Below are positions 1 through 48,759 of a stretch of 48,759 nucleotides of DNA, one piece after another. The DNA is from a virus. The stretch lies in the IMG/VR virus record IMGVR_UViG_3300029805_000004. One strand, written 5' to 3'. The notes beneath the pieces were generated by a model, which had not been told where the DNA came from, did not search any database, and saw only the letters and a program-made list of their open reading frames with translations. Within the stretch, counting starts at the first letter, position 1; every line of letters starts with the position of its first letter. A program made the position numbers and the translations under genes.

Positions 1-119
1 AATACAGCCGGGGTGAACTCAAGTGAAGATTGATTTGCCATTATTTATACCTCAGTAATTTTGACGTTTTGTGATACCAGACCGTAGCTGTCTTTCAGCT
101 TCATGCCAGTCTCACGACT
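1..119. repeat. Terminal direct repeat copy 1 (identical to 48641-48759); most likely a circular-assembly overlap
   Basis: Bases 1-119 (aatacagccggggtgaactc...catgccagtctcacgact) recur exactly at 48641-48759. The junction lies inside minus-strand coding sequence. Confidence 0.95.
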
Positions 120-290
120 GATGACCTGACACGCAGTGCCGTAGCCACCTACCCAGCCACCTGTATCAGCTTTTTTACAACCGATATATGAAGGTACGTT
201 CTTCTTGACGCTGTATACCTCAACGGTCACAACACGGTGTCCGTAACGGTTGGGCTTGCCATACTTTTCAGTGAATATAAAGTGTCTCAT
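45..290 (-). CDS. hypothetical early protein (81 aa)
   Basis: ATG at 290 preceded by AGGAGattgaa on the minus strand. Only a 3-nt gap to the upstream small ORF. No family recognised. Confidence 0.6.
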   Translation of the reverse strand: MRHFIFTEKYGKPNRYGHRVVTVEVYSVKKNVPSYIGCKKADTGGWVGGYGTACQVISRETGMKLKDSYGLVSQNVKITEV

Positions 291-302
291 TTCAATCTCC
301 TA

Positions 303-1163
303 TTAAAACCAGCGACCTTCACAGATTGGGCCAATACCAGCCGCAATACTTTTTGGGTCAGTTAATAATCTACCGCAACACATACACGTGCCGGTGTCTC
401 TACCGTATTCTTTTGCAGCTTCCAGTGGACTTGCAGCCAACTTGTCTAACGTGGCTTGTAGGTCCTCAGACGCGGTGCGCAATTTACGCAGTTCACCGTC
501 AGCAGTAATTTTGCCTGCGTACTCGCCATGGTCCTTAATATAAAGGCAACCAACATTTTTACCTGTAGGCGGTGCGATGGATATCACAAGTGAACCGATA
601 TGCAGGCGGGGTTTTTTCAAACCACTCTCACGTGCAGTATCAAATAAGGCATTGATTTTTGTTAAGTCGATGATCGGTGCAGACTTCTTAACTTCAGCTT
701 GCTTGGCGATGTGCTTGGTGTGCATTTTCTCAGCAGCAGCCAACTGGTTGTCAGTCAACGAACCATAATCAGATACACTGCGAAGCAATGACTCAGCAAA
801 CCCATTCCAACTGCACACTTTCTTCAGAAAAATATGCAACTCTTCGTGGGCCTCAATCCATACAGCAGCTTTAGCTTCCAACTCAGACTGCTTTTTAACA
901 GCAGCAGTGGCCTTGCGACCATCACGTGAGAGTTTAGCTTTGGCCCGGTCAGCAGCACTGGTCTTGAAATAGCCGCGACCATTACACACGAAGCAGTTAG
1001 CTTTGGGTTGGTGGATACGAACGCCACCATAGATGCCAGTACCGCCACACTTAGTGCAGGGATACTTGACACCGTCTTTACAAATAGCTTTGGTGCTGGC
1101 AATCAACTGACCTTCCCAATCACCTTCTAAATCGTCGAACCCATTGAATGTATCGTCACTCAT
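303..1163 (-). CDS. zinc-finger protein: N-terminal DnaJ-type CxxCxGxG pair, C-terminal CxxCGRxLTDxxSxxxGIGPxC (DUF6011-like) motif
   Basis: 286-aa ORF with AGGAG RBS. Contains CTKCGGTG and CFVCNGRG near the N-terminus. The C-terminus is TCMCCGRLLTDPKSIAAGIGPICEGRWF. Confidence 0.7.
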   Translation of the reverse strand: MSDDTFNGFDDLEGDWEGQLIASTKAICKDGVKYPCTKCGGTGIYGGVRIHQPKANCFVCNGRGYFKTSAADRAKAKLSRDGRKATAAVKKQSELEAKAAVWIEAHEELHIFLKKVCSWNGFAESLLRSVSDYGSLTDNQLAAAEKMHTKHIAKQAEVKKSAPIIDLTKINALFDTARESGLKKPRLHIGSLVISIAPPTGKNVGCLYIKDHGEYAGKITADGELRKLRTASEDLQATLDKLAASPLEAAKEYGRDTGTCMCCGRLLTDPKSIAAGIGPICEGRWF

Positions 1164-1174
1164 ATCAAGTCTCC

Positions 1175-1528
1175 TTAAAATTTACGTTTAGGGATTTTCA
1201 TAACGATTTCTGACACCTTCATTTCGCTGGCAGTATCAACAAGCTCACCACACGACTCTTCAAACTCTTGCATGGTATCGGCACCGCGAAAAACAAACTC
1301 CAAATTAATCTCGTCAGCATTAGGGTATGCAGTTCTGATGTAATCAATATGAGAGGCAAGGTTTGCTTTAGTCAGCGGTGACACTTCATGGTCAATGCCA
1401 TCATTCAAGCGCGTGTTTTTGCGGTCATATATATAAAGCAATGCTTCACAGCGAATGAAGGGGTAAACCTTCTTAGCTTCAGCGTAACCTTCTTTGCGAA
1501 GTTCTTTCAGTTGTTGAAGTAATGTCAT
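1175..1528 (-). CDS. hypothetical early protein (117 aa), first gene of the leftward arm
   Basis: ATG at 1528 preceded by GGAGattgaa. Lies downstream of the leftward promoter-like element. No family recognised. Confidence 0.6.
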   Translation of the reverse strand: MTLLQQLKELRKEGYAEAKKVYPFIRCEALLYIYDRKNTRLNDGIDHEVSPLTKANLASHIDYIRTAYPNADEINLEFVFRGADTMQEFEESCGELVDTASEMKVSEIVMKIPKRKF

Positions 1529-1566
1529 TTCAATCTCCGGGGTGGTGGTTTAATTAACTTAATGAC

Positions 1567-1595
1567 ACTATGCGCCTCCTGTCCGACACTGTCAA
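1567..1595 (-). promoter_or_regulatory. leftward sigma70-like promoter (TTGACA-17 nt-CATAGT)
   Basis: On the minus strand, TTGACA is the complement of 1590-1595 and CATAGT the complement of 1567-1572, with a 17-nt spacer. The spacer contains the operator GTGTCGGACAG. Confidence 0.5.
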
Positions 1596-1630
1596 CTTTA
1601 TCCGTTATTTACTTTAACGCTGTCGGACAG
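1579..1630. promoter_or_regulatory. operator pair: 10-bp inverted repeat CTGTCCGACA (1579-1588) / TGTCGGACAG (1621-1630)
   Basis: Read directly. The same TGTC-n-GACA / GACACTGTC motif recurs at 4532-4550, 8001-8019 and 47253-47305. Confidence 0.6.
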
Positions 1631-1659
1631 TTGACACACTTCTATAGCGGTAGTAGGGT
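1631..1659 (+). promoter_or_regulatory. rightward sigma70-like promoter (TTGACA-17 nt-TAGGGT)
   Basis: TTGACA at 1631-1636, a 17-nt spacer, then TAGGGT at 1654-1659. The operator copy at 1621-1630 abuts the -35. Confidence 0.45.
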
Positions 1660-1770
1660 TGTTGCTTGCTTTGGCTAGGTGATGAATAGCTGTCATCACT
1701 GAACGCTTCTTTCCGGGGAAGCTGCCACGGCCCCACTTACCGGGTGATATCGACGGAGGATATTATTAAA

Positions 1771-4236
1771 ATGCATCCAATAATAAGAATTAATAACGAC
1801 GAATTTCTACGCGGGATTTTCCGCGAAAATTATCTAACCACCCATGTCAACAGCTTTGCTTTTGATCCAAATAATATTCCCAATGACATGCGTGGTATTG
1901 CATGGGCTGGTGGCTATTATGAGAACACGCCGCTACGACCGGGAGAGAATCAATTTTTCTGCGTATCGCAGTTCATGATTGACTTCACCACGGGTCGAGC
2001 AGTCAGGCGTAAGGCCAACTTCCTTGCTACCTATCTAATCGTCGCTGATGACGTGGAAGAGAAGCTACCACTTGAGCAGGTCCAACGCTTGCCCAAGCCG
2101 AGCTACATACTCAGGACATCCAACTACTCATATCAATGGGGCTGGATTCTGGAAGTCCCGGAAACGAACATGGACCGGGTCAACAACTTACTGGACCAAC
2201 TGATTGCGAATGGTTTAGCACCTGACGGTACAGATCCGGGCATGAAAGGTGTCACCCGGTTGATACGCACACCTGATGGCTTCAACACCAAGGTCAAACG
2301 AATTGAAGAGAACGGTGGCGCGGCGCCACAGTGTGAAGTCACGCAGTGGAACCCGGAACTACGCTACACCATGGAACAGTTAGCCGAGCCCTTCAATGTT
2401 GAGCTCGACGCACCACGGTCTGACGGTCGAGTTGACGGTGCAGCCGATGTGCCTGACCACCCGGTGCTGCAACATCTAGCTATCAAATCCACCTTGAGTG
2501 CAGGCCGATACGACATCACCTGTCCATGGGTCGATACGCATACTGATAAAGACGACAGCGGTTCAGCCGTATTCACTAATGAAGATGGGACCGTTGGCTT
2601 CCAATGTCACCATGGTCACTGCCAAGAAAAGACAGCGGGTGACGTGCTCAACTTCCTGAACGTGACGGTCCCCGGCTTCTCGACGGTGTATTCAAACTGG
2701 AAGATGAACCGGGCTTTAGACACGTTGCCTGATATCCCAACGGCACCGCCATCAATGCAAGTACCGATACTCAGCTTCATGGGGGTGGCCCCGGTAAAGG
2801 AGGATGATAGCGGCATGGACGCGGCGATAGTAAAGCTGTCTCACATGGTCCCCGGTGATGAGCAGCGGGTATTCGCTGAAACATTACTGCACACCATCAA
2901 TGGTCTGAGCAATGAAATGTTGAAGATCACTTACAATGAAGATGTGCGACTCTCAATGGACTGGACCAAGTCTGAACTGACTAAAATTATCAAGGCCCTG
3001 CATCGCAGTCACGCGGTAGCGCATGGGGCCAACGATACAATGTGGCTACTCGACAACATCGTGCTGATGACTGAAGGTGCGGGTGGCTTCTATAATATCC
3101 ATCGCAACGTATTCCAGTCCGCGTTCTCACTCACTGCAACCTACGGTCACATGGTGCTAGGTGATGAGACACCCGCCAGCGTGATAGCCAACAATCCCAA
3201 CAAGCGAACAGCGGACCGTATAGGGTGGCACCCGACAGCGGAACAGACCTTCGACTACGATGGTCGGACCTACCTGAATACCTACTCACCACCACGCATG
3301 ATACCAATCCCCGGTGACGTCAGTCAGTGGCTACAACTCATGGACTTCCTATATAAAGAGCACGCACATCTACTCATTCAACACATGGCATTTACTTTGC
3401 AACGGCCCGACGTGAAAATTCGCTGGCAACCGTTGATTGGTGGTATCCCACGTAGCGGCAAGACAATGAGCATTAAACCATTGATAAAGATATTAGCCGG
3501 TAGTGCAGCCATGGTCAGTAATGATGACTTTGAAGCAGGATGGGGTGATGTCTTTAGTGAGAAGAAAGCGATTGCCTTTGAAGAAGTATGGCAACCAGAT
3601 AAGCGGCAGTTCAACAGGCTTAAAACGAAGTTGGCTAATGATGACATTGAAACGCTGAACATTAAGGGCCAAGGCTTGAAAACGCAGCGCAATCTATACA
3701 GTATCTATATGTTCACCAACCATCTTGATGCGCTTCAGTTTGATGATAATGAAGATAAGCTGCTGGTCATACGGTGCAATGAGCGCATGAGTGTGGAGTT
3801 CTACCGTGAGCTTGGCAACAAGATAGACTTTGATGCGAATTACATTGCCCACATCTATCATTACCTGCTGAATGTGGATCTCAGTACCTTTGATCATGGA
3901 CGTTTGCCAGTGCGTACACAGGCCATGTATGACATGGTAAAAGAGAGTCGTCCTGAGTATGAAACTTTAGCACTGGAATGGCTTGAAGATGAAGTGTTTA
4001 ATCCAGCCTGTTTTCGCATGGCAGATATGATGTCAAAACTACGAGATTGTACGACAGTCAGAAGCATGAAAAAGGTGGGGCAAATGTTGCATCGGGAAGG
4101 TTATATTTCTCATAAGGCCCAAAGAAAGGGCCATCCGGTAGTCAGGTTCTGGTCAAATGATGCTGCCTGCATTGATATGAAGCCGGTTGATTTGCACACT
4201 TACTACCACAAGATGCTCACAGCATCAATCCCATAA
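1771..4236 (+). CDS. DNA primase/helicase (AEP-type primase N-domain, Cys/His zinc module, SF3/D5-like NTPase)
   Basis: GGAGGA at 1755-1760, 10 nt before ATG 1771; the track start GTG 1744 is less likely. Primase-like LIVADDVE and TRLIRTPDGFNTK motifs. Zinc module CPWVDTHT...FQCHHGHC. Walker A is GGIPRSGKT. Confidence 0.8.
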   Translation: MHPIIRINNDEFLRGIFRENYLTTHVNSFAFDPNNIPNDMRGIAWAGGYYENTPLRPGENQFFCVSQFMIDFTTGRAVRRKANFLATYLIVADDVEEKLPLEQVQRLPKPSYILRTSNYSYQWGWILEVPETNMDRVNNLLDQLIANGLAPDGTDPGMKGVTRLIRTPDGFNTKVKRIEENGGAAPQCEVTQWNPELRYTMEQLAEPFNVELDAPRSDGRVDGAADVPDHPVLQHLAIKSTLSAGRYDITCPWVDTHTDKDDSGSAVFTNEDGTVGFQCHHGHCQEKTAGDVLNFLNVTVPGFSTVYSNWKMNRALDTLPDIPTAPPSMQVPILSFMGVAPVKEDDSGMDAAIVKLSHMVPGDEQRVFAETLLHTINGLSNEMLKITYNEDVRLSMDWTKSELTKIIKALHRSHAVAHGANDTMWLLDNIVLMTEGAGGFYNIHRNVFQSAFSLTATYGHMVLGDETPASVIANNPNKRTADRIGWHPTAEQTFDYDGRTYLNTYSPPRMIPIPGDVSQWLQLMDFLYKEHAHLLIQHMAFTLQRPDVKIRWQPLIGGIPRSGKTMSIKPLIKILAGSAAMVSNDDFEAGWGDVFSEKKAIAFEEVWQPDKRQFNRLKTKLANDDIETLNIKGQGLKTQRNLYSIYMFTNHLDALQFDDNEDKLLVIRCNERMSVEFYRELGNKIDFDANYIAHIYHYLLNVDLSTFDHGRLPVRTQAMYDMVKESRPEYETLALEWLEDEVFNPACFRMADMMSKLRDCTTVRSMKKVGQMLHREGYISHKAQRKGHPVVRFWSNDAACIDMKPVDLHTYYHKMLTASIP

Positions 4237-4303
4237 GCGTTAATGCTACTCTCAACACCAGTCGTGCTGGGAGTAGTAATGCTGTGAGCGTTGATACCCA
4301 CTT

Positions 4304-4523
4304 CAGTGACTACTTTTGCTATCTGACTACCTTTACTGACTACCTAAAAACTCTAATGAAAACAATAGTATATATATACTTTTAATAAAGGTAGTCAGGT
4401 AGTCACTACTACTAATACTTATACTTAACACTGTTATAAACGTTAATGTAAATTCTCAACGATTTACGTTTTCATCCTCTTACGGTATTAGTAGTCACAA
4501 ACTACTGACTACCGACTACCTTT
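4304..4523. other. putative replication origin: iteron array (cTGACTACCttt) in both orientations around an AT-rich core
   Basis: TGACTAC at 4307, 4324, 4337 and 4506, plus CGACTAC at 4513. The complement GTAGTCA is at 4391, 4399 and 4491. The core 4344-4390 is about 83% A+T and includes tatatatata. The region is non-coding. Confidence 0.55.
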
Positions 4524-4529
4524 GATTTG

Positions 4530-4559
4530 TTGACACTGTCGGACACTGTCTGCTAGTAT
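4530..4559 (+). promoter_or_regulatory. sigma70-like promoter with embedded operator (TTGACA-18 nt-TAGTAT)
   Basis: TTGACA at 4530-4535 and TAGTAT at 4554-4559. The spacer is CTGTCGGACACTGTCTGC, which carries two overlapping GACACTGTC copies (4532-4540 and 4542-4550). Confidence 0.55.
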
Positions 4560-4602
4560 CTTGGATGGGGCAATGTTGCCCGGTGTAAATGGAGTTTGAA
4601 AC

Positions 4603-4737
4603 ATGAGTAAATTCGACCATAAGAAAGTGCCTGAAGGAATGTTCTTTTGCCAAGGGTGTAGACAGCAACGACCTGTCGGTGATCGCACTGGTAAATACGG
4701 TAAGTCATGCAGCAAGTGCAACGGTGAATCATCATGA
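4603..4737 (+). CDS. 44-aa zinc-ribbon mini-protein (CxxC...CxxC)
   Basis: Below the ORF-track cutoff. GGAG lies 8 nt upstream of ATG 4603. Sequence MSKFDHKKVPEGMFFCQGCRQQRPVGDRTGKYGKSCSKCNGESS. ATGA overlap with the next gene. Confidence 0.55.
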   Translation: MSKFDHKKVPEGMFFCQGCRQQRPVGDRTGKYGKSCSKCNGESS

Positions 4738-4952
4738 GATTATCCATCGGTTTAGCAGTGGTTTTTCTTACCGGGATGTTTTTCAGCATCATGGCGTGGT
4801 ATTTGGATTTGCCCACGGTTGGACTTAATGACCGGCACGAATGTCAATGGGTGGAAGAAGCACCTGCGTTTGAACGACGTGACTGCCCAAAGGAATTACC
4901 AGACAGCTATCATCCAGTGTATGTGCACTATGATGACAGCAAAGGGGAATAA
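4734..4952 (+). CDS. small membrane protein (72 aa, N-terminal TM helix)
   Basis: ATGA-coupled start. Hydrophobic segment LSIGLAVVFLTGMFFSIMAWYL. Confidence 0.55.
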   Translation: MRLSIGLAVVFLTGMFFSIMAWYLDLPTVGLNDRHECQWVEEAPAFERRDCPKELPDSYHPVYVHYDDSKGE

Positions 4953-4954
4953 TC

Positions 4955-5086
4955 ATGCAAGACTTACTGCACGCTATCTTGGAAGAATTGAAGCGGAACA
5001 ATGAATTATTACAGCAGATGCTTGAGCAGCGGGATAAGGACCTTGACCTAGCTGATGAGCTTGAACGGGAGTTGAAGCGTGATTGA
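4955..5086 (+). CDS. 43-aa coiled-coil mini-protein
   Basis: AAGGGGA RBS before ATG 4955. Sequence MQDLLHAILEELKRNNELLQQMLEQRDKDLDLADELERELKRD. Fills the gap between neighbouring genes. Confidence 0.45.
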   Translation: MQDLLHAILEELKRNNELLQQMLEQRDKDLDLADELERELKRD

Positions 5087-5270
5087 CATTTTGTTGGAGA
5101 TAGCGACTGAGCGTAAATATGCCAAGGCCAGTATGGTAGCGGCACCACGTTGTTCGTCTTATGACGATGAGTGTGTGGACGTTACATCACCATCAAAATG
5201 CTGGATTGGTGATAACAAGACAGGACCGGCTGATGGCTACTGTCCATTGATGGGGCGAAGCAATGACTGA
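5079..5270 (+). CDS. hypothetical Cys-containing protein (63 aa, GTG start)
   Basis: GGGAG lies 7 nt upstream of GTG 5079. The ORF overlaps both neighbours by 8 nt. Confidence 0.45.
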   Translation: MIDILLEIATERKYAKASMVAAPRCSSYDDECVDVTSPSKCWIGDNKTGPADGYCPLMGRSND

Positions 5271-5430
5271 ATCACCGTGTTGTGAGGCACCGTTTGTATC
5301 GTTCAGATCGTTGAACATGAAGATGTGCGCTGACTGTTTACAAGAATTTCCATGGGACCTGAAGAAAGGTCAGAACCCATTGCTTACAGGCAGCAGAGAT
5401 AATTCAAAATTTGGAGAACATAATGACTAG
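5263..5430 (+). CDS. 55-aa Cys-rich mini-protein
   Basis: ATG 5263 overlaps the previous stop. Sequence MTESPCCEAPFVSFRSLNMKMCADCLQEFPWDL...; stop TAG at 5428-5430. Confidence 0.45.
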   Translation: MTESPCCEAPFVSFRSLNMKMCADCLQEFPWDLKKGQNPLLTGSRDNSKFGEHND

Positions 5431-6142
5431 ATGGACAATTAGTAATGGCGATAGACCAGTCAGTGACCACACGTTGATTAAAGTGGAATTTGATAATGGG
5501 ACCTTCAAGACTGACGAGTGCTACAAATTTGAGTGGCGTAAAATCATGCCGTCAGGTGGCAACATAGCGCGGTGGCAATTAGCTAAAGAGGAAGTCATTG
5601 ACAGCGGCGTCCTACACACTGTTGGGATTGTTGGTAAGCATCAATGGAATAAGGCGAAAGGTGTACCACCTAACGCGCACCACCTGCGAGTTGATGTAGA
5701 GTTTGAAGATGGTCACACCATAGAAAACACCCATATTTCAGATGTCAACTGGTACAAGGAAAGTTTGAACGCAGTGGTCAAGTGGCGATATTGTCAGACA
5801 CCACCCAAGCACACTGTTGAGTTTGAAGAAGAAGCGGCTAGTGTGAGTGAAGATACATGGGAGTCCTTAATCGTGCCTATACTGACCCAAGTCGGTAAAC
5901 AGGACCGTTACATGATTGGTGATGATAAAGACAAGATTGATATGTGGGCTGAACAACATCCCCATGATATCTTCAGGAAAATCATGTTTGCCATGATTGA
6001 CAAGTATGAGTGCAGGCTGGGTAGAAAGGATGACATAGTCAATGAGACTGCTAAAATGCTAGACTACATGAACCGCTGGCACAATTATGAATTGATATGG
6101 GCGAAAGAAGATGCTGAACAGCAGACAACGACGACGGCTTGA
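5423..6142 (+). CDS. hypothetical protein with duplicated N-terminal domain and DUF3310-like C-terminus
   Basis: GGAGA at 5413-5417 before ATG 5423; the track start is TTG 5411. Two similar segments: HTLIKVEFDNGTF...W and HHLRVDVEFEDGHT...W. The C-terminal IDKYECRLGRKDDIVNETAKMLDYM resembles the DUF3310 core as I remember it. Confidence 0.6.
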   Translation: MTRWTISNGDRPVSDHTLIKVEFDNGTFKTDECYKFEWRKIMPSGGNIARWQLAKEEVIDSGVLHTVGIVGKHQWNKAKGVPPNAHHLRVDVEFEDGHTIENTHISDVNWYKESLNAVVKWRYCQTPPKHTVEFEEEAASVSEDTWESLIVPILTQVGKQDRYMIGDDKDKIDMWAEQHPHDIFRKIMFAMIDKYECRLGRKDDIVNETAKMLDYMNRWHNYELIWAKEDAEQQTTTTA

Positions 6143-6251
6143 AGCCGAGTTGCACAATGCCAACATTGAGGCTGACAAGAAGCAGCGTTCAAAGTGGGCC
6201 ATACGTGCACTTCGTGAAGAGTTTAACAAAGGACGAGAAGGGACGATATGA
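6111..6251 (+). CDS. possible 46-aa basic coiled-coil mini-protein
   Basis: ATG 6111 lies inside the end of the previous gene. Its stop overlaps the terS ATG (ATGA). The RBS is weak. Confidence 0.3.
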   Translation: MLNSRQRRRLEAELHNANIEADKKQRSKWAIRALREEFNKGREGTI

Positions 6252-6694
6252 GTGACTTAGACTTCATGGGTACTGTTGATGAACTGCTATTGCCGATGGT
6301 GGGCAAGCAGGCCCCATTTGTCGAAGAATATCTTATTGACTTCAACGGAACACGTGCTGCAATCGCCGCTGGATACAGTGAAAAGACTGCAACATCAATG
6401 GCTTCGGAGAACCTTAGAAAACCACACATCATTGCTGCGATAACGGCTAAGTTGGAAGAATCAGCCATACGCAATGAAGTAACGATTGACAGCTTGACGA
6501 AGGATTTGCGTAGTGCTGTGAGGATTGGGAAGCAGGAAGGTCAGGCGTCAGGCGTCACTGGTGCGGTGATGGCGATGGCTAAGATCCATGGTTTTGCCAA
6601 CGACAAATCGACAATCATCCATAAAGGCGATGTGAATCTGCACCACACAATAGAATTTGTGACGCCTAGTGGCCCACCTACAAATACCGAGTAA
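6248..6694 (+). CDS. terS: terminase small subunit (Terminase_2/P27-type)
   Basis: APFVEEYLIDFNGTRAAIAAGYSEKTATSMASENLRKPHI matches the small-terminase HTH signature. Lies immediately upstream of terL. Confidence 0.85.
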   Translation: MSDLDFMGTVDELLLPMVGKQAPFVEEYLIDFNGTRAAIAAGYSEKTATSMASENLRKPHIIAAITAKLEESAIRNEVTIDSLTKDLRSAVRIGKQEGQASGVTGAVMAMAKIHGFANDKSTIIHKGDVNLHHTIEFVTPSGPPTNTE

Positions 6695-7997
6695 GCTGAA
6701 GCCCCTGTTCGCCGCCATACGCTACAAAATCATGTATGGGGGCCGAGGGGGTGGTAAGTCTCATTCAGTGGCCCAAGCACTGCTTATAACCGGCACAACC
6801 AAGCCAATGCGTATACTTTGTGCACGTGAAGTTCAGAAGTCCATCAAGCAATCGGTCCACCAGCTACTATGTGATTACATCGTCAAGCTGGAACTGACCA
6901 ACTTTTATGAAATCTTAGACAATGAAATACGTGGGGCCAACGGCACAACCTTCAACTTTGCTGGCCTTGCAGGTAGCACTGTAGACAGTATCAAGTCGTT
7001 TGAAGGTGCTGATGTCTGCTGGGTGGAAGAAGGTCAGACTGTCACCAAGCGAAGCTGGGACGTCCTGATACCCACCATTCGCGCACCGGGCAGTGAAATA
7101 TGGGTGACGTTCAATCCCCACACTGACCTTGATAACACTTACGTTCGCTTCGTGCTGCAACCACCACCAGACAGCGTGGTGATTAAGATCAACTACCCGG
7201 ATAACCCATGGTTCAGTGCAGAGCTTGAAGCGGAACGGCTGCACTGTTTAGCGACAGATCCAGACAACTACGCTAATATTTGGGAAGGTGAATGTCTGAG
7301 TGCCAGCGAAATGCAATTTATAACTACTGATTCAGTCCGTGAGTCCATGTCACGTCAAGCACGTTATCTTGGTGATGATCCACTGATTTGCGGTATCGAC
7401 TTGGCCCGTGGTGGTAATGATGACTGCTTCATCACCTTCAGACGCGGTAAGGATGCACGCAGCGAGAAAATCTACAAGATACCCGGCAAGAAATCACGTG
7501 ACTCAATGGTAGTCGTATCGTTGGTGACTAAAATATTGCAGGACCACCAGCCTGACCAAGTCAATGTAGATGAAGGAAGCATGGGTGGTCCTATCGTTGA
7601 TAGATTGAACCAGCTTGGTTGGAACGTCATGGGTGTCAGCTTTGGCAGTCGAGCTACCGATGACAAGCATTACAGCAACAAGGTCGCTGAAATGTGGGAT
7701 AGGATGCGCGTATGGATTGTCAACGGTGGTGCATTGCCTAACAATCCACGCTTGCTGACAGAATTAACATGCCGTGAGTTCAGCCACGATAATAAAGACA
7801 GACTGGTACTTGAGAGCAAGAAAGCGATGAAGTCAGGTCCAGATCCTAAGCCATCACCTGATTGGGCTGACTCAATCTGTCTGACGTTTGCCATTGATGT
7901 AGCACCGATTGAGCGTAAGGACCGTGATGATATTCATGGTATGCGTTTGCGCAGCACGCATGACGTTGACCCACTGGACGCAATGACCTTCAATTAA
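6669..7997 (+). CDS. terL: terminase large subunit (PBSX/Terminase_3-like)
   Basis: N-terminal RYKIMYGGRGGGKSHSVAQALL (Walker A) and VCWVEEGQ (Walker B). The GTG 6669 start is uncertain, but it must lie upstream of the RYK motif. Confidence 0.85.
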   Translation: MAHLQIPSKLKPLFAAIRYKIMYGGRGGGKSHSVAQALLITGTTKPMRILCAREVQKSIKQSVHQLLCDYIVKLELTNFYEILDNEIRGANGTTFNFAGLAGSTVDSIKSFEGADVCWVEEGQTVTKRSWDVLIPTIRAPGSEIWVTFNPHTDLDNTYVRFVLQPPPDSVVIKINYPDNPWFSAELEAERLHCLATDPDNYANIWEGECLSASEMQFITTDSVRESMSRQARYLGDDPLICGIDLARGGNDDCFITFRRGKDARSEKIYKIPGKKSRDSMVVVSLVTKILQDHQPDQVNVDEGSMGGPIVDRLNQLGWNVMGVSFGSRATDDKHYSNKVAEMWDRMRVWIVNGGALPNNPRLLTELTCREFSHDNKDRLVLESKKAMKSGPDPKPSPDWADSICLTFAIDVAPIERKDRDDIHGMRLRSTHDVDPLDAMTFN

Positions 7998-8000
7998 CGC

Positions 8001-8019
8001 TGTCCGACACTGTCCGACA
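8001..8019. promoter_or_regulatory. tandem operator TGTCCGACA-C-TGTCCGACA
   Basis: Read directly, immediately after the terL stop. The flanking TTAACGCTGTC is shared with the copy at 1614-1624. Confidence 0.6.
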
Positions 8020-8042
8020 AAATCCCCAATTAAAACAATAAG

Positions 8043-8071
8043 TTGGACAAGCCAAAACAATAAGTTATACT
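8043..8071 (+). promoter_or_regulatory. sigma70-like promoter of the virion operon (TTGGAC-17 nt-TATACT)
   Basis: TTGGAC at 8043-8048 and TATACT at 8066-8071. The 13-bp direct repeat AAAACAATAAGTT (8032-8044 and 8054-8066) overlaps both hexamers. Confidence 0.55.
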
Positions 8072-8098
8072 CCGTAAAACTATACAGGAGTGTGACCT

Positions 8099-8311
8099 AT
8101 GTGCGGCGGCGGACCTTCAACACCTAAACCACCAGCTATAGCACCCGTACTACCTGAAGCACCACAAGCGTCAGGTCGGGTTGAAGTAACCAAGAACAGT
8201 GATGATGACAGACGTCGTCGTTCTGGACATGCAGGCACCATCCTTACCGGGCCACGTGGTCTGACAAGTGACACCGGGGCTTCTCAATCTAAATCATTGT
8301 TGGGTGCATAG
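8099..8311 (+). CDS. small virion-module protein (70 aa), MCGGG N-terminus, C-terminal TILTGPRG...KSLLGA motif
   Basis: CAGGAG RBS 8 nt before the ATG. Pro-rich N-terminus and basic RRRR patch. In size, MC start and position it recalls T7 gp6.7-class proteins (weak). Confidence 0.6.
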   Translation: MCGGGPSTPKPPAIAPVLPEAPQASGRVEVTKNSDDDRRRRSGHAGTILTGPRGLTSDTGASQSKSLLGA

Positions 8312-8313
8312 AC

Positions 8314-8844
8314 ATGGCTAGTGGCGTACCTGCTGGCGGCAGATTGGTCAGTTCAAATTATGGACAGCCGTTTGCTCACATGAGGCAACCAGCCGGTGAT
8401 AAAGACTCCGACTTCAAGAAATTCAAGACACCGACATCCAACAACAGCGGCAAGACGTTCTGGCGTCGTAAAGGTCCGGGTGATGATGGTCATGATGACG
8501 TGTATCAATACAAGCGGTCCATCATTACCAGACCAGTGATGAGTAATAATCGTGGCCCGTTTGGAATGTTCCCACAGCAAGCAAGAGATACAGGACCGTT
8601 TAACACCGGCACTGGTCAACTGCTGTACTCACAAAGCATTAACTACAAAGAAGCAGGTCGTTTAGCCGGGTCCAGCAAGAACGGTGACAGGCAACCTGAA
8701 AAAGCCAAGCGTGCGAATGATCCACGGCTAGGCGGCAGCAGTACCAAACAGAACAAATCTAATCGTCGAAGCAGCACGATCTTAACGGGACCACGCGGCA
8801 AGCTAGGCGGGTCAACTACCACTAAATCACTATTGGGTGCATAA
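8314..8844 (+). CDS. disordered polar protein (176 aa) ending in the same TILTGPRG...KSLLGA motif
   Basis: The ORF fills the gap between the 70-aa gene and the portal gene. Its C-terminus NRRSSTILTGPRGKLGGSTTTKSLLGA parallels that of the previous gene. Confidence 0.6.
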   Translation: MASGVPAGGRLVSSNYGQPFAHMRQPAGDKDSDFKKFKTPTSNNSGKTFWRRKGPGDDGHDDVYQYKRSIITRPVMSNNRGPFGMFPQQARDTGPFNTGTGQLLYSQSINYKEAGRLAGSSKNGDRQPEKAKRANDPRLGGSSTKQNKSNRRSSTILTGPRGKLGGSTTTKSLLGA

Positions 8845-8845
8845 G

Positions 8846-10525
8846 ATGGCACGCGAAAAGAAGTCATACGACAAACGATTGGGAACCCTACGTGCAGAGC
8901 GTTCAGGGTTCATCGACTATTGGCGTGAGTTATCTGATATTCACCTTGCCCACCGGGGACGTTTCTTAACGTCTGACCGCAACAAGGGCCATAAACGTAA
9001 CACCAAACAATACAACAACACTTCACGTCTAGCAGTCAGAACGATTGCGTCAGGCATGATGGCAGGTATCACATCACCAGCACGACCATGGTTCAGATTG
9101 CGGACCAGTGATCCAGTGCTCAATGAGAGTGGCGCGGTGAAGGAATGGTTGCACGATGTTGAAGGAATGATGCGTGAAGTATTCAACTCATCCAACCTAT
9201 ACAACTCATTGCACGTGACCTACGCTGAACTGGCTGTGTTTGGTACTGCCAGCATGGGTGTATTCAGTGACTATGAGAATGTGATTTGGTGCAAACCTTA
9301 CACCGTGGGCAGCTATTCGCTGGGCATGAACGGTAAGAATATTGTTGACACTCAATACCGGGAATATGAATTGACCGTGGCCCAAATGGTTGATGAGTTT
9401 GGCCTTGAGTATTGCAGCAACCAAGTCAAGAACCATTGGAAGAAAGGCAGCACTGAAACATGGATCAAAGTGGTCCACGTCATTGAACCTAATGATGACC
9501 GGGATGCACTGAATCCCATGGCAAAACATAAGCGGTATCGCAGCGTCTACTATGAAGCAGCGCATACCATTGAGGACCAACATCAATTCTTGCGTGAGTC
9601 AGGCTTTGATGAGTTCCCAATACTGACACCACGCTGGGATGTAACGGGTGAAGATATCTATGGCACTGACTGTCCGGGGATGGTCGCGCTGGGTGATACC
9701 AAGACCTTACAACTGCAAGAGCGTCGTAAGTACCAAGCGATAGATAAAGTGGTTAATCCACCTGTTCAAGCACCATCATCACTACGCAACAAGATATCAG
9801 GCGGTAACTTGGTATCGGGTGAAATAGTGTTTGTGGATGACACGGCGAACGGTGGTGTTAAATCATTGTATGACTATCGACCAGACTTAGCTGCGATGCA
9901 GGCGTCTATCGACATTAACGAAGAGAGGATCAAGCGTTCGTTCTATGAAGATTTGTTCTTGATGCTGTCAAACAGTGACCGTCGTCAAATCACCGCACGT
10001 GAGATATCAGAGCGTCATGAAGAGAAGCTATTGATGCTCGGTCCTGTATTGGAACGTCTGCACACTGAGCTACTAGATCCACTCATCGACAGAACATTTA
10101 ACATCATGCAGCAAGCAGGAATACTGCCTGATCCACCTGAAGAATTGAAAGACAGTGTCATCAACGTCGAATATGTATCGGTACTGGCCCAAGCTCAAAT
10201 GATGGTCGGCATTGGTGCCTTGGAACGTACTGCACAGTTTGCTGGCAGCTTGGTCGAAATTTGGCCTGAAGCACGTCATAAGTTTGATGCACTGCAAGCG
10301 ATGGATGATTATTCAGAAGCCATGGGTGTCAGTCCTCACGTTGTCCGTAGTGATGATGAAGTGGCAGGCATTATGGATGCCGAGAAAGCAGCGGCCCAAG
10401 AACAGAAACAAGCAGAACAAGCAGCTATGGCAACTGACATGGCAGGCCAAGCCGCCAGCATGGATACCAGCGGTCAGAACGTATTGACTGATGTCATGCG
10501 TATGGCAGGGATACAACCAGAATGA
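8846..10525 (+). CDS. portal protein (T7 gp8 head-tail connector family)
   Basis: RSFYEDLFLMLSNSDRRQITAREISERHEEKLLMLGPVLERLHTELLDPLI aligns by eye with T7 gp8 RLSFAFMLNSAVQRTGERVTAEEIRYVASELEDTLGGVYSILSQELQLPLV. ATG 8846 is preferred over GTG 8837. Confidence 0.85.
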   Translation: MAREKKSYDKRLGTLRAERSGFIDYWRELSDIHLAHRGRFLTSDRNKGHKRNTKQYNNTSRLAVRTIASGMMAGITSPARPWFRLRTSDPVLNESGAVKEWLHDVEGMMREVFNSSNLYNSLHVTYAELAVFGTASMGVFSDYENVIWCKPYTVGSYSLGMNGKNIVDTQYREYELTVAQMVDEFGLEYCSNQVKNHWKKGSTETWIKVVHVIEPNDDRDALNPMAKHKRYRSVYYEAAHTIEDQHQFLRESGFDEFPILTPRWDVTGEDIYGTDCPGMVALGDTKTLQLQERRKYQAIDKVVNPPVQAPSSLRNKISGGNLVSGEIVFVDDTANGGVKSLYDYRPDLAAMQASIDINEERIKRSFYEDLFLMLSNSDRRQITAREISERHEEKLLMLGPVLERLHTELLDPLIDRTFNIMQQAGILPDPPEELKDSVINVEYVSVLAQAQMMVGIGALERTAQFAGSLVEIWPEARHKFDALQAMDDYSEAMGVSPHVVRSDDEVAGIMDAEKAAAQEQKQAEQAAMATDMAGQAASMDTSGQNVLTDVMRMAGIQPE

Positions 10526-12926: not shown

Positions 12927-12948
12927 CCGTCACGACGTTTAACTTAGT

Positions 12949-12980
12949 AAGTGGGGCTGTTATGCAGTCCCACTTCTTTT
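12949..12980 (+). terminator. rho-independent terminator after the capsid genes
   Basis: An 11-bp stem aagtggggctg / cagtcccactt (one G-U pair), a 5-nt loop, then cTTTT. Confidence 0.75.
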
Positions 12981-12997
12981 AACTAAAGGAAATTGAA

Positions 12998-43581: not shown

Positions 43582-43662
43582 TTTAATCTCCTCTCTTAAT
43601 AGCAATGGCAGCTAAGACTTTACACAAAAAGGATGCCAATCCCGTCCTAACTACCATTACTA

Positions 43663-43917: not shown

Positions 43918-44144
43918 GAGTTGTATCCCCCAAGTTGTTCTGCATACCATTCAAAGGCAACGGTAATGAGATTATCAAAAGCAGCGTAGACACCACGCAT
44001 CACGAACAGCACTGCGTACCATTCAACGATTGCCATTTCTGGATCATCATTCAGATGGATATCAAACAGCATCACAATCACCAGCGGCGTCATGAAAAAC
44101 ATGGCGTAGAACAGTAAAATAAATGCGTGCTTTTGACTAATCAT
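43914..44144 (-). CDS. small membrane protein (76 aa, two predicted TM helices)
   Basis: FILLFYAMFFMTPLVIVMLF and AIVEWYAVLFVMRGVYAAF. TAATG-coupled. Confidence 0.55.
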   Translation of the reverse strand: MISQKHAFILLFYAMFFMTPLVIVMLFDIHLNDDPEMAIVEWYAVLFVMRGVYAAFDNLITVAFEWYAEQLGGYNS

Positions 44145-44308
44145 TACCTTCTCCTAGTGGTTATCAGTTTCACCCGGTTGGCTGCTTCAGGCATACCGTA
44201 CCGCGTGATGTATAAGTACATGGTGGAAACTCCAACATTGAGAATGATGGACAAATCTAACGTGTCCACACTCTCGCCGTTGTAGTCATACAGGACCGTG
44301 TTGGTCAT
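44144..44308 (-). CDS. 54-aa helix-turn-helix protein
   Basis: Below the track cutoff. TAATG-coupled at both ends. LDLSIILNVGVSTMYLYITRYG resembles an HTH. Confidence 0.5.
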   Translation of the reverse strand: MTNTVLYDYNGESVDTLDLSIILNVGVSTMYLYITRYGMPEAANRVKLITTRRR

Positions 44309-46622: not shown

Positions 46623-47029
46623 TACAATGCAGCCATTCTTTCATTGAAAGTAGCAAATTGTGCTTGCGGTAACGCTGCAAAACCATTGACACCAAACTCA
46701 GTCAGCAAGTTGCGCACTGCTGCACCGCTATCACCTAACCGGGTTGCGGCTGCTATGGCTGCTGCGTTCAAAGTCTCAGCCGTGATGGTCGTGGCTGCTG
46801 GTGGTGTTGGTGCTACGGCTGCTGCTGCTACGGGTGCTGCTGCTGCAACTGCTGGTGCTGGCACGCTGGTCAACACGGGTGCCGCTGCAACTGGTGCCGC
46901 TGCTGCTACCACTGGTGTTTCAACCTGACCGACTGTTTCAACAGACAGACCTGCTACCAACGCTGTTAATAAGGCCACCATTTGTTCATTAGTGGCTGCG
47001 ATTTTTTCTAAATTTTGTTCAATTGACAT
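46622..47029 (-). CDS. hypothetical protein with central Ala/Pro/Val-rich linker (135 aa)
   Basis: TAATG-coupled to the nuclease gene. Two small helical ends are joined by PVVAAAAPVAAAPVLTSVPAPAVAAAAPVAAAAVAPTPPAA. Confidence 0.55.
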   Translation of the reverse strand: MSIEQNLEKIAATNEQMVALLTALVAGLSVETVGQVETPVVAAAAPVAAAPVLTSVPAPAVAAAAPVAAAAVAPTPPAATTITAETLNAAAIAAATRLGDSGAAVRNLLTEFGVNGFAALPQAQFATFNERMAAL

Positions 47030-47225
47030 CGTATAATTCTCCAGATGTTTTCATAGTTTTAAGTTGTTCAGCAGTCGGGGTAATTTTCAATCTACCTTCG
47101 CTGGCGGCAACCATCATTTCACGGAATAGGTCATTGTGATCCTTCCCGTAAATCTCTTTGGACTTCTCCTTGAAAGTTTCAAGTTCGTCCTCATCCACAC
47201 GTATGTGAAATCGCATACTTCCCAT
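47019..47225 (-). CDS. ribbon-helix-helix (CopG/Arc/MobC-like) DNA-binding protein, 68 aa
   Basis: RFHIRVDEDELETFKEKSKEIYGKDHNDLFREMM is a beta-strand plus two helices, the RHH pattern. AGGAGG RBS. The operator cluster lies directly upstream. Confidence 0.6.
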   Translation of the reverse strand: MGSMRFHIRVDEDELETFKEKSKEIYGKDHNDLFREMMVAASEGRLKITPTAEQLKTMKTSGELYDVN

Positions 47226-47252: not shown

Positions 47253-47305
47253 GACAGTGTACCCTATCTGTCGGACACTGTGTTACTTAATTGTGACACT
47301 GTCAC
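47253..47305. promoter_or_regulatory. operator cluster: GACAGTGT (47253-60), TGTCGGACACTGTG (47269-82), palindrome GTGACACTGTCAC (47293-305)
   Basis: Read directly in the 81-nt gap between two minus-strand genes. The minus strand also carries a TAGGGT hexamer like the -10 at 1654-1659. Confidence 0.6.
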
Positions 47306-47549: not shown

Positions 47550-47909
47550 CTACTTTTGAACAGGGTGGATTGGGGGATTGCCCATACTTAATGCAGCACG
47601 TGTTTCATAAAGCAATGTTTCCACCTTATCAAGTCGCTCGTTCATCACTTCAAGCTCATCCATCAAGGTTGCTACCTTTTTAGATGGCTGCTTGCCAGTG
47701 CTAGGACGACGCCATTTCAGTAGTTTATATTTCTTAGCATTGAGCATGGATGATTCGCTGATTGGGACCCCAACCTTTTCACTCAAGGTCTTACAGATAT
47801 CTTCATTAGGTACACCGTTAAGAGCACCGTCAGCAGCCATCAATACCAACTCGTCACAGACCTGACAATACTGGTTGTTTGTAATACGAAGTCGTATAAT
47901 TTTATCCAT
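47550..47909 (-). CDS. HTH plus coiled-coil DNA-binding protein candidate (119 aa)
   Basis: GGAGaatatcATG at 47909. NEDICKTLSEKVGVPISESSMLNAKK is HTH-like, followed by a basic patch and then a helical C-terminus. Confidence 0.5.
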   Translation of the reverse strand: MDKIIRLRITNNQYCQVCDELVLMAADGALNGVPNEDICKTLSEKVGVPISESSMLNAKKYKLLKWRRPSTGKQPSKKVATLMDELEVMNERLDKVETLLYETRAALSMGNPPIHPVQK

Positions 47910-47922
47910 GATATTCTCCAAT

Positions 47923-48239: not shown

Positions 48240-48502
48240 TTCTCACTTTCCCTTAGTAAGTTTTTAACAACTTCAGTGTAGTCAGTGCCTTTGTAGTTGA
48301 TAAATTTGATCTGGTTATAACCGTTAAATGTAATGGTCCAATCTGAATCAACACCTTCACCGAAAATCTCTTCAGACATATCACGAATAAATTGTTTGAC
48401 CATGTTTACCTTCACGTCACTTACCGTTCTATGTTTAAAGTTTGCTGAAATGAAACATTCCAACGGGTTGAATTTTAGAGTTCTAGTTATTGTGTATTTC
48501 AT
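48236..48502 (-). CDS. hypothetical early protein (88 aa)
   Basis: TAATG-coupled to the upstream gene. Confidence 0.55.
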   Translation of the reverse strand: MKYTITRTLKFNPLECFISANFKHRTVSDVKVNMVKQFIRDMSEEIFGEGVDSDWTITFNGYNQIKFINYKGTDYTEVVKNLLRESEK

Positions 48503-48681
48503 TACTCACCACCTTTGAACACGTTTTCAAGGTGCTCAATTAAATACTTAGCATAGCCAACGACTAGCTCAACATCGTCAAACATGAATGTTTCATCACC
48601 ACGCTCGACGCACTTTTTATACTCAACTTTCAACCGGGCCAATACAGCCGGGGTGAACTCAAGTGAAGATTGATTTGCCAT
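48502..48681 (-). CDS. hypothetical early protein (59 aa) spanning the repeat boundary
   Basis: Below the track cutoff. Sequence MANQSSLEFTPAVLARLKVEYKKCVERGDETFMFDDVELVVGYAKYLIEHLENVFKGGE. The same ATG appears at 39-41, which shows the two ends are contiguous. Confidence 0.5.
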   Translation of the reverse strand: MANQSSLEFTPAVLARLKVEYKKCVERGDETFMFDDVELVVGYAKYLIEHLENVFKGGE

Positions 48682-48759
48682 TATTTATACCTCAGTAATT
48701 TTGACGTTTTGTGATACCAGACCGTAGCTGTCTTTCAGCTTCATGCCAGTCTCACGACT
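48641..48759. repeat. Terminal direct repeat copy 2 (identical to 1-119)
   Basis: Exact 119-bp identity with the window start. Confidence 0.95.

Follow-up and report, generated by a model that had tools for sequence, protein, structure and literature searches.

We analysed a viral contig of 48,759 nucleotides (nt; IMG/VR record IMGVR_UViG_3300029805_000004, hereafter the window), in which a short palindromic motif recurs in the gaps between transcription units. The motif consists of alternating TGTC and GACA half-sites separated by 1-nt spacers. Bases 1-119 are identical to bases 48641-48759, and this 119-nt terminal identity indicates that the window is a circular assembly; the gene at 48502-48681 therefore crosses the junction, and positions 1-44 are not intergenic. 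The GC content is 47%. A capsid search found the major capsid protein to be 75% identical to those of Vibrio phages 1.185.O, 1.021.A, PS25B.1 and MZH0603, a terminase search was uninformative, and megablast with the first 8.2 kb of the window gave no nucleotide-level match among GenBank phages.

The plus strand carries the primase gene (1744-4236) followed by small genes and by terminase, structural and lysis genes, to ~37820. The minus strand runs from 1528 leftward across the contig junction to 37813, with small early genes first and then a replication module in the order ribbon-helix-helix-like (RHH) protein, 135-amino acid (aa) protein, DUF2800 nuclease, Enc34-type single-stranded DNA-binding protein, DNA polymerase, VRR-NUC, Dam and SNF2 helicase. 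No RNA polymerase, integrase, other lysogeny or other DNA-binding domain was detected among 30 window proteins scanned against Pfam, a set that includes the 2538-aa and 1464-aa proteins and leaves most structural proteins outside; within this set, an earlier, sequence-only reading of the window as a phage without its own RNA polymerase holds.

The motif and its promoters

The motif copies, the predicted promoters around them and the candidate regulator gene are as follows.

1564-1572: site A', degenerate copy GACACTATG, 7/9 match
1580-1593: site A, TGTCCGACACTGTC, that is TGTC-C-GACA-C-TGTC
1595-1567, minus strand: leftward promoter, -35 TTGACA at 1595-1590, -10 CATAGT at 1572-1567
1621-1629: site B, TGTCGGACA
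1631-1659, rightward: primase promoter, weaker, -35 TTGACA at 1631-1636, -10 TAGGGT at 1654-1659
4426-4436: weak extra palindrome TAACACTGTTA with the core ACACTGT, overlapping a promoter-like TTAACA-18-TAAATT
4530-4559: 4530 promoter, -35 TTGACA at 4530-4535, -10 TAGTAT at 4554-4559
4532-4550: site C, GACACTGTCgGACACTGTC, two GACACTGTC palindromes in 10-bp tandem
8001-8019: site D, TGTCCGACAcTGTCCGACA, TGTCCGACA twice in 10-bp tandem, starting 4 nt past the terL stop codon
8043-8071: late promoter, -35 TTGGAC at 8043-8048, -10 TATACT at 8066-8071, 17-nt spacer
47019-47225, minus strand: 68-aa RHH-like protein, candidate repressor, first gene of the replication operon and first downstream of site E
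47253-47303: site E, a row of three palindromes whose centres (47257, 47278 and 47299) follow at 21-bp intervals; the RHH gene lies immediately downstream
47253-47261: E1, GACAGTGTA, in the leader, 27 nt before the RHH ATG
47269-47282: E2, TGTCGGACACTGTG
47295-47303: E3, GACACTGTC

Non-coding DNA makes up ~2% of the genome (963 nt by our own gene calls), and the motif is strongly concentrated there. ACA[CG]TGT cores fall in non-coding DNA in 8 of 13 cases against 0.12 expected (P = 1e-12), and GTC[CG]GAC cores in 6 of 9 against 0.10 expected (P = 1e-9). Coding DNA holds both at background, with 5 against 6.1 expected for the first and 3 against 4.8 for the second; many equally good copies inside genes, which the sequence-only reading had named as the result that would speak against its proposal, were not found. 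A search with TGTCNGACA returned 8 matches against 1.18 expected, a count that 0 of 100 shuffles reached. The six of these that are TGTC[CG]GACA nine-mers, with a C or G spacer, all sit in non-coding, intergenic DNA, and the two that are coding (5792 and 25789) have an A spacer. The TGTC/GACA motif was also the top family in a de novo count of intergenic 8-mers.

Every copy that had been reported (A and B, C, D and E) was recovered, as was a 10-bp inverted repeat between TGTCGGACA(G) at 1621-1630 and 1579-1588. The exact nine-mer GACACTGTC lies on the plus strand at 1585, 4532, 4542, 8006 and 47295, as previously counted. A sixth copy, on the minus strand at 10151-10159 in the portal gene, had been missed, and it is the one exception to the claim that the motif is confined to non-coding DNA; what stands of that claim is the intergenic enrichment over a coding background.

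Six intergenic gaps are at least 50 nt long. Four of them contain the motif, and these carry sigma70-like promoters. The other two gaps (12927-12997 and 43606-43662) hold terminator-like hairpins with T-runs and no motif. An intrinsic-terminator-like hairpin at 12946-12978 (AAGTGGGG...CCCACTT, then CTTTT) follows the gene that comes after the major capsid gene. A promoter scan of positions 1-9000 placed three of its six best matches (10/12) on the motif. It lists TTGACA-17-CATAGT (minus strand, 1595-1567), TTGACA-18-TAGTAT (4530-4559) and TGGACA-16-TATACT (8044-8071) at 10/12, in line with the promoters suggested earlier; the rightward TTGACA-17-TAGGGT (1631-1659) is present in the sequence with a -10 too weak for the scan. 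We conclude that the motif is a real, non-random element at promoter-bearing intergenic regions, and that it is functional.

The positions of the sites relative to the promoter hexamers are close and specific. At the leftward promoter the -35 shares its GACA with the last half-site of site A, the rest of site A fills the spacer, and the -10 overlaps site A', whose centre is 21 bp from that of the GACACTGTC within site A. Site C covers the GACA of the 4530 promoter -35 together with 15 of its 18 spacer bases, and site B ends 1 nt upstream of the primase promoter -35. E1-E3 sit 28-80 nt upstream of the RHH start codon; on the minus strand, E3 overlaps a -35-like GTGACA and E2 a -10-like CACAGT, at 17-nt spacing. 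TTGACA ends in GACA, and xACAsT is similar to a -10 hexamer, so that palindrome pairs 21 bp apart coincide with both promoter hexamers. Site D ends 23 nt upstream of the late promoter -35, the distance given in the sequence-only reading.

Sites B and D also share the 16-mer TTAACGCTGTCsGACA (1614-1629 and 7994-8009, 15/16 identical). Its TTAACGC is a one-sided extension of the motif, and at site D the TAA within it is the terL stop codon.

Two other identities for these elements were considered and rejected. A known RNA element does not fit: there were no Rfam or tRNA matches, the palindromes are too short for hairpins, and the predicted transcription starts on either side of sites A and B diverge. 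Nor does E3 fit a terminator, although it was flagged as resembling one on the plus strand: the called genes around it are all on the minus strand, where no T-run follows the hairpin.

Conservation in related phages

Relatives of the window were found through its replication module. A word-indexed protein search with the 68-aa RHH protein returned only itself, its other contigs being the same phage, and viral contigs scanned with the RHH or the DUF2800 protein alone gave no matches. A 40-sequence RHH alignment was too divergent for search patterns; the DUF2800 and portal alignments were usable. The DUF2800-alignment scan identified 52 related loci, in 42 of which an RHH family member is the first gene of the replication operon, and in the loci examined the RHH gene is usually divergent from the primase gene. 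The closest relatives carry the beta-strand RFMIRV (RFHIRV in the window): Logan contig L124, and contig IMGVR_UViG_3300030412_000381, which comprises loci L156 and L208.

The second of these is well diverged from the window, with identities of 56% for RHH, 59% for DUF2800, 61-63% for primase, 69% for DNA polymerase, 70% for portal, 72% for TerL and 80% for capsid. It nevertheless has (G/T)ACAnTGT(C/A) palindromes at all four equivalent boundaries, though the surrounding intergenic DNA has diverged. The sequence-only reading had proposed loss of the motif at such boundaries as grounds for rejecting it, and the motif was kept at 4/4:

Divergent primase/early boundary: window A, A' and B; L156 1412 (TGTCTGACAGTGTC), 1450 (TTGACAATGTCA, over a -35) and 1470 (GTACACTGTG, over a -10)
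Boundary upstream of the RHH gene: window site E; L156 4246 and 4256, TACACTGTCATT identical to window E1
Boundary downstream of the primase gene: window site C (in the form compared, TTGACACTGTCGGACACTGTCTGCTAGTAT); L208 1576, TTGACATTGTATGACGGTGTAGTAT, with the motif at 1579 over a TTGACA
Boundary just past the terL stop: window site D; L208 4422-4445, five alternating half-sites

At the first boundary, site A is kept in L156 as TTGACAATGTCATACA, A' aligns with GTACACTGTG and B with TGTCTGACAGTGTC, and the 1450 and 1470 sites are 20 bp apart. At the last, the L208 array ends 22 nt upstream of a conserved TTGGACA...TATACT promoter, compared with 23 nt in the window. A direct repeat, AACAATAAGTT, flanks the -35 of the window's late promoter (8034-8044 and 8055-8065), and its first copy is kept in L208 (AACAATGAGTT). 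Another tandem pair in L156 (9736-9754) covers a TTGACA that follows the DNA polymerase gene, and 7 of the 9 ACAnTGT cores of this locus lie in ~470 nt of intergenic DNA, where by rough estimate ~0.1 would be expected.

In L124, two GTACAnTGTC sites 20 bp apart lie 25-54 nt upstream of the RHH start codon, with GTACAgTGTC at the position equivalent to E1. In three genomes (window, L156 and L124) the sites cluster most densely immediately before the RHH gene, and the motif occurs upstream of this gene where the beta-strand is RF[HM]IRV. Neither nine-mer occurs in the 43-44 kb of Vibrio phages L120 and L121, whose beta-strand is LRMRIA. In 47 relatives with other beta-strands, the stretch upstream of the RHH gene holds one copy at most, where the same exact count gives two for the window, and it shows different repeats. 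Among the more distant RHH groups, inspection by eye gave only suggestive repeats, such as GTTGCA...TGCAAC around a promoter in the TFLTVRL group and TACACAtttGTGTA in L126; these are too weak for a claim of covariation beyond the RF[HM]IRV group. Inspection of the gap between terL and the next gene in four more distant relatives brought out neither an obvious promoter nor an array, so that site D and its promoter appear specific to the motif-bearing lineage.

Gene content singles out the RHH protein. The window shares with L156 and L124 the RHH protein, the adjacent 135-aa protein and the replication enzymes, and its small early genes, including those for the 123-aa and 117-aa proteins, have no homologue in either. 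This phylogenetic profile points to the RHH protein as the factor that accompanies the motif.

Further repeats were seen in these genomes. The non-coding early regions of L120 (42993-43190) and L121 (31636-34927) contain five and four copies, respectively, of TTTGACAC(T), which may be these phages' own repeated promoter or operator box. Directly downstream of the window's primase gene, (C)TGACTAC(C) recurs in both orientations (4300-4525); its copies, eight or more in total, surround an AT-rich core (4350-4385), and this region is probably a replication origin. Similar iterons occupy the equivalent place in the relative (L208 1380-1570).

The candidate regulator and its proposed action

The 68-aa protein has an Arc-like N-terminus, with the beta-strand M4-R-F-H-I-R-V10 followed by DEDELETFKEKSKEIYG and then by KDHNDLFREMMVAA. 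In an AlphaFold2 model (mean predicted local distance difference test score, pLDDT, 85.6; above 90 over residues 11-50), residues 1-11 are extended and helices span 12-26, 30-42 and, at the C-terminus, 52-62. The extended N-terminus fits an RHH monomer, because the RHH strand pairs only in the dimer. All the parts of the fold are in place: a strand of alternating polar and hydrophobic residues, helix A, a turn containing glycine and helix B. Foldseek against the PDB returned RHH proteins (DinJ, AtaR, Rv0300, NikR) as its top 7 and as 10 of the 15 listed matches. In BFVD, beyond two unnamed family members, the match was to a 'Ribbon-helix-helix domain' (probability 0.99, E = 0.28). The family profile had no sequence match in the PDB; it aligned with Arc in register by hhalign (E = 0.002, probability 13%), and family members have subthreshold matches to RHH_1, DUF6290, NikA-like, BrnA and CopG_antitoxin.

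An exhaustive phmmer search yielded 44 family representatives, mostly of 59-108 aa. The strand-helix-Gly-helix pattern is kept in the 40 that were aligned, with R9, F18, R35 and E36 invariant or nearly so. Beyond the DNA-binding fold the family has a C-terminal tail, GRLKITPT..Q..ELY (residues 43-68), in which Y65 is invariant and R45, I48 and Q54 nearly so; the tail may be a surface for cooperativity or partner binding. The RHH fold of the 68-aa protein is well supported, and no homology to any named family is demonstrated. The sequence-only reading had put forward both an RHH and a helix-turn-helix (HTH) protein as binders. The RHH protein emerges as the best candidate; the HTH protein does not, as no HTH domain was detected in any small protein and the non-RHH early genes are not shared with the motif-bearing relative.

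From these lines of sequence evidence we favour the reading that the TGTC/GACA arrays are probably operators for the phage-encoded 68-aa RHH protein, which would bind them as a repressor. RHH dimers would contact the 9-bp palindrome (G/T)ACA-n-TGT(C/A) through its major groove, which would take up the paired N-terminal beta-strands with R5, H7 and R9 turned towards the DNA. The 10-bp spacing at C and D, or the 21-bp spacing at A'/A and E1/E2/E3, would put dimers on one face of the helix, so that cooperative binding would be possible. Given that GACA lies within TTGACA and that xACAsT is -10-like, the operators would coincide with the core of the leftward early, 4530 and RHH/replication promoters, and site B would abut the primase promoter at its -35. 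With repressor bound, host RNA polymerase would have no access to these promoters. Exclusion of the polymerase from an occupied -35 and -10 would amount to negative autoregulation of the RHH/replication operon, and early transcription would be shut down or damped as RHH protein accumulates, like Arc at P22 Pant.

Site D may act differently, given its place 22-23 nt ahead of the late promoter -35. Activation would fit the conserved distance; a roadblock after terL, or repression from upstream, is equally possible. The sequence-only interpretation is largely reasonable and in part supported; that one regulator gates all major promoters is not established, site D standing apart from its promoter and the promoter at 47253-47305 being weak by consensus (8/12). 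An extended version of the proposal would have the single 68-aa protein serve as a full temporal switch, repressing the early and replication promoters through palindromes that double as -35 and -10 and activating the late promoter from the site D array, with the 5-bp-phased TGTC/GACA grammar common to unrelated phage RHH proteins. We regard this version as doubtful.

Other arrays, other readings and known systems

Arrays of the same half-sites occur well outside this phage group. A scan of viral contigs for four half-sites (16 specified bases) found 29 loci, and five of them have multiple arrays (L136, L145, L146, L154 and L155), none encoding the window's RHH family. Some of these arrays are long. 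L145 has 13 nine-mers within ~280 nt (8495-8767), and L136 has a perfect 54-nt (GACAATGTCG)n run (6419-6472). In L154 one 19-mer sits 22-23 nt upstream of three consecutive start codons (59-903), and dense arrays are also present at L146 2507-4546 and L155 5877-6239. In other loci, small RHH-like open reading frames (ORFs) start beside or within the arrays (L133 1984-2051, L134 9272-9298, L147 1649-1732 and L152 3564-3582). Pfam matched them to RHH_1, RHH_5, PutA RHH or TacA1, and no match reached its curated cut-off; the best scored 20.2 bits, with 20.5 required. At L069 457-554, from a 14-mer scan, two divergent RHH-like ORFs, judged by eye, flank two arrays. The basic-x-x-x-Arg pattern of the window protein's strand (RFHIRV) recurs in several array-side ORFs (RLSARV, KLSARL). 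This association of arrays with RHH ORFs in unrelated phages was seen without a formal control and is suggestive only. The exact 14-mer scan itself gave more than 119 matches in viral contigs, mostly single-copy; it is dominated by two unrelated phage lineages and is for that reason uninformative by itself.

Several observations weigh against the 68-aa protein acting as the repressor at these sites. It matches no Pfam and no PHROG family, and its structural matches are all weak (Foldseek PDB E of at least 0.87; BFVD E = 0.28). The site E promoter has 8/12 consensus positions, below the scan threshold, and sites D and E1 lie outside the core promoter hexamers. Both registers of the motif, ACAsTGT and GTCsGAC, are enriched, where a symmetric dimer would be expected to centre on one. 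Arrays in L136, L145, L146 and L154 have no RHH gene beside them, the surroundings of L155 having been checked with the A1 profile only. Finally, in ~17 near-identical unrelated contigs (L027, L038, L043, L051 and ~13 more) a 69-aa HTH-like ORF (MTGKKQADLAEVLGMSSKQ...) has TGTCCGACACTGTC 21 nt ahead of it, which shows that TGTC palindromes are not RHH-specific.

The last two observations, together with the lack of a significant family match for the 68-aa protein, lend some weight to the idea that the motif is an operator bound by a different protein, either another phage early protein (the 123-aa product of 47550-47921 and the 54-aa product of 44144-44308 are candidates) or a Vibrio host transcription factor. 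We consider this unlikely. The RHH protein is common to L156 and L124, and the 123-aa, 117-aa and other small early proteins are not; the Pfam scan detected no DNA-binding domain in any other small protein; and in three genomes the sites are densest just ahead of the RHH gene. Against a general Vibrio host factor there are also L120 and L121, related Vibrio phages without the motif. The same absence counts against a host SOS (LexA) box, which was rejected. The LexA box is CTGT-N8-ACAG, and the half-sites here are 1 nt apart, not 8.

The overlap with promoter hexamers raises another reading, in which the motif is a lineage-specific promoter consensus (an extended -35/-10) for host RNA polymerase, possibly modified by a phage factor, and not a repressor site. 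It would account for GACA as the 3' part of TTGACA, for the resemblance of xACAsT to a -10 and for the 21-bp spacing of paired sites, which is that of -35 and -10; the repeated TTTGACACT boxes of L120, which resemble plain promoters, are in its favour too. We nonetheless judge it improbable. Sites B, D and E1 are outside the promoter hexamers, no sigma70 element requires the 10-bp tandem palindromes of C and D, dyad symmetry is kept in L156/L208 even where bases differ, and the same type of array stands beside RHH genes in unrelated phages. That the motif is a chance cluster of a short palindrome or a by-product of composition, a thought invited by half-sites of just 4 nt (the genome has ~200 copies each of TGTC and GACA), is already refuted by the statistics (P ~1e-12 for non-coding cores with coding DNA at background, and no shuffle attaining the observed TGTCNGACA count) and by the four equivalent boundaries at which the diverged relative keeps it.

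Operators for the 68-aa RHH protein would find parallels in several known systems. Arc and Mnt of phage P22 (immI) are small RHH proteins with operators over the -35 and -10 of divergent promoters; Arc is made from a promoter that it then shuts off, with two dimers per operator bound on the same face about one helical turn apart. The window protein is in register with Arc (RFHIRV and QFNLRW, a G-x-x-x-N loop, helix B) but has no significant sequence relationship to it (hhalign probability 13%), a different operator sequence and the extra conserved tail GRLKITPT..Q..ELY. Its candidate sites are spread over at least five promoter regions, and no lysogeny domain was found in the 30 scanned proteins, whereas P22 is temperate and has one immunity region. 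The met-boxes of MetJ (8 bp) and the sites of omega of pSM19035 (7 bp) are RHH units repeated head-to-tail or inverted in 2-10 copies, with several promoters per regulon. The window's 9-10-bp units are likewise in tandem at C and D and vary in number per promoter, but a unit here measures 10 bp and its half-sites recur every 5 bp, and there is no evidence for a corepressor.

The stoperators of mycobacteriophages (L5 gp71, Bxb1 gp69) are asymmetric sites of 13-14 bp, 20-30 per genome and oriented with transcription, at which an HTH repressor blocks elongation. They resemble the window's sites as many short copies spread across the genome, mostly in short intergenic regions. The window's sites are instead palindromic, number about a dozen and are at promoters, with 8 core copies in four promoter-bearing gaps and coding copies at chance level, and we do not class them as stoperators. 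CopG of pMV158 is a small RHH protein that autoregulates a replication operon promoter. Reg576 of pLS20 is reported to be an RHH regulator of plasmid establishment genes (PMC6294495). As with CopG and Reg576, the RHH gene of the window is the first of the operon it is proposed to regulate; replicon type and operator sequence differ, and no homology was detected. Literature searches with the nine-mers returned only primer sequences, and searches on RHH, phage and promoter found nothing on this motif or protein.

Control of this proposed kind, by a small repressor whose operators lie across promoters, is textbook phage biology; the protein family in which it is seen here is unannotated. The resulting map of regulation is testable: it names five promoter regions, the operator bases and a single candidate regulator. 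It would serve a large clade of marine podophage-like genomes, uncultured and with no annotation of their control regions, that comprises 52 loci with a common replication module. It also suggests a likely function for a small protein family that neither Pfam nor PHROGs names. Pairs of operator and beta-strand, RF[HM]IRV with (G/T)ACAnTGT(C/A) and [RK]LSAR[VL] beside similar arrays, could feed into an RHH recognition code.

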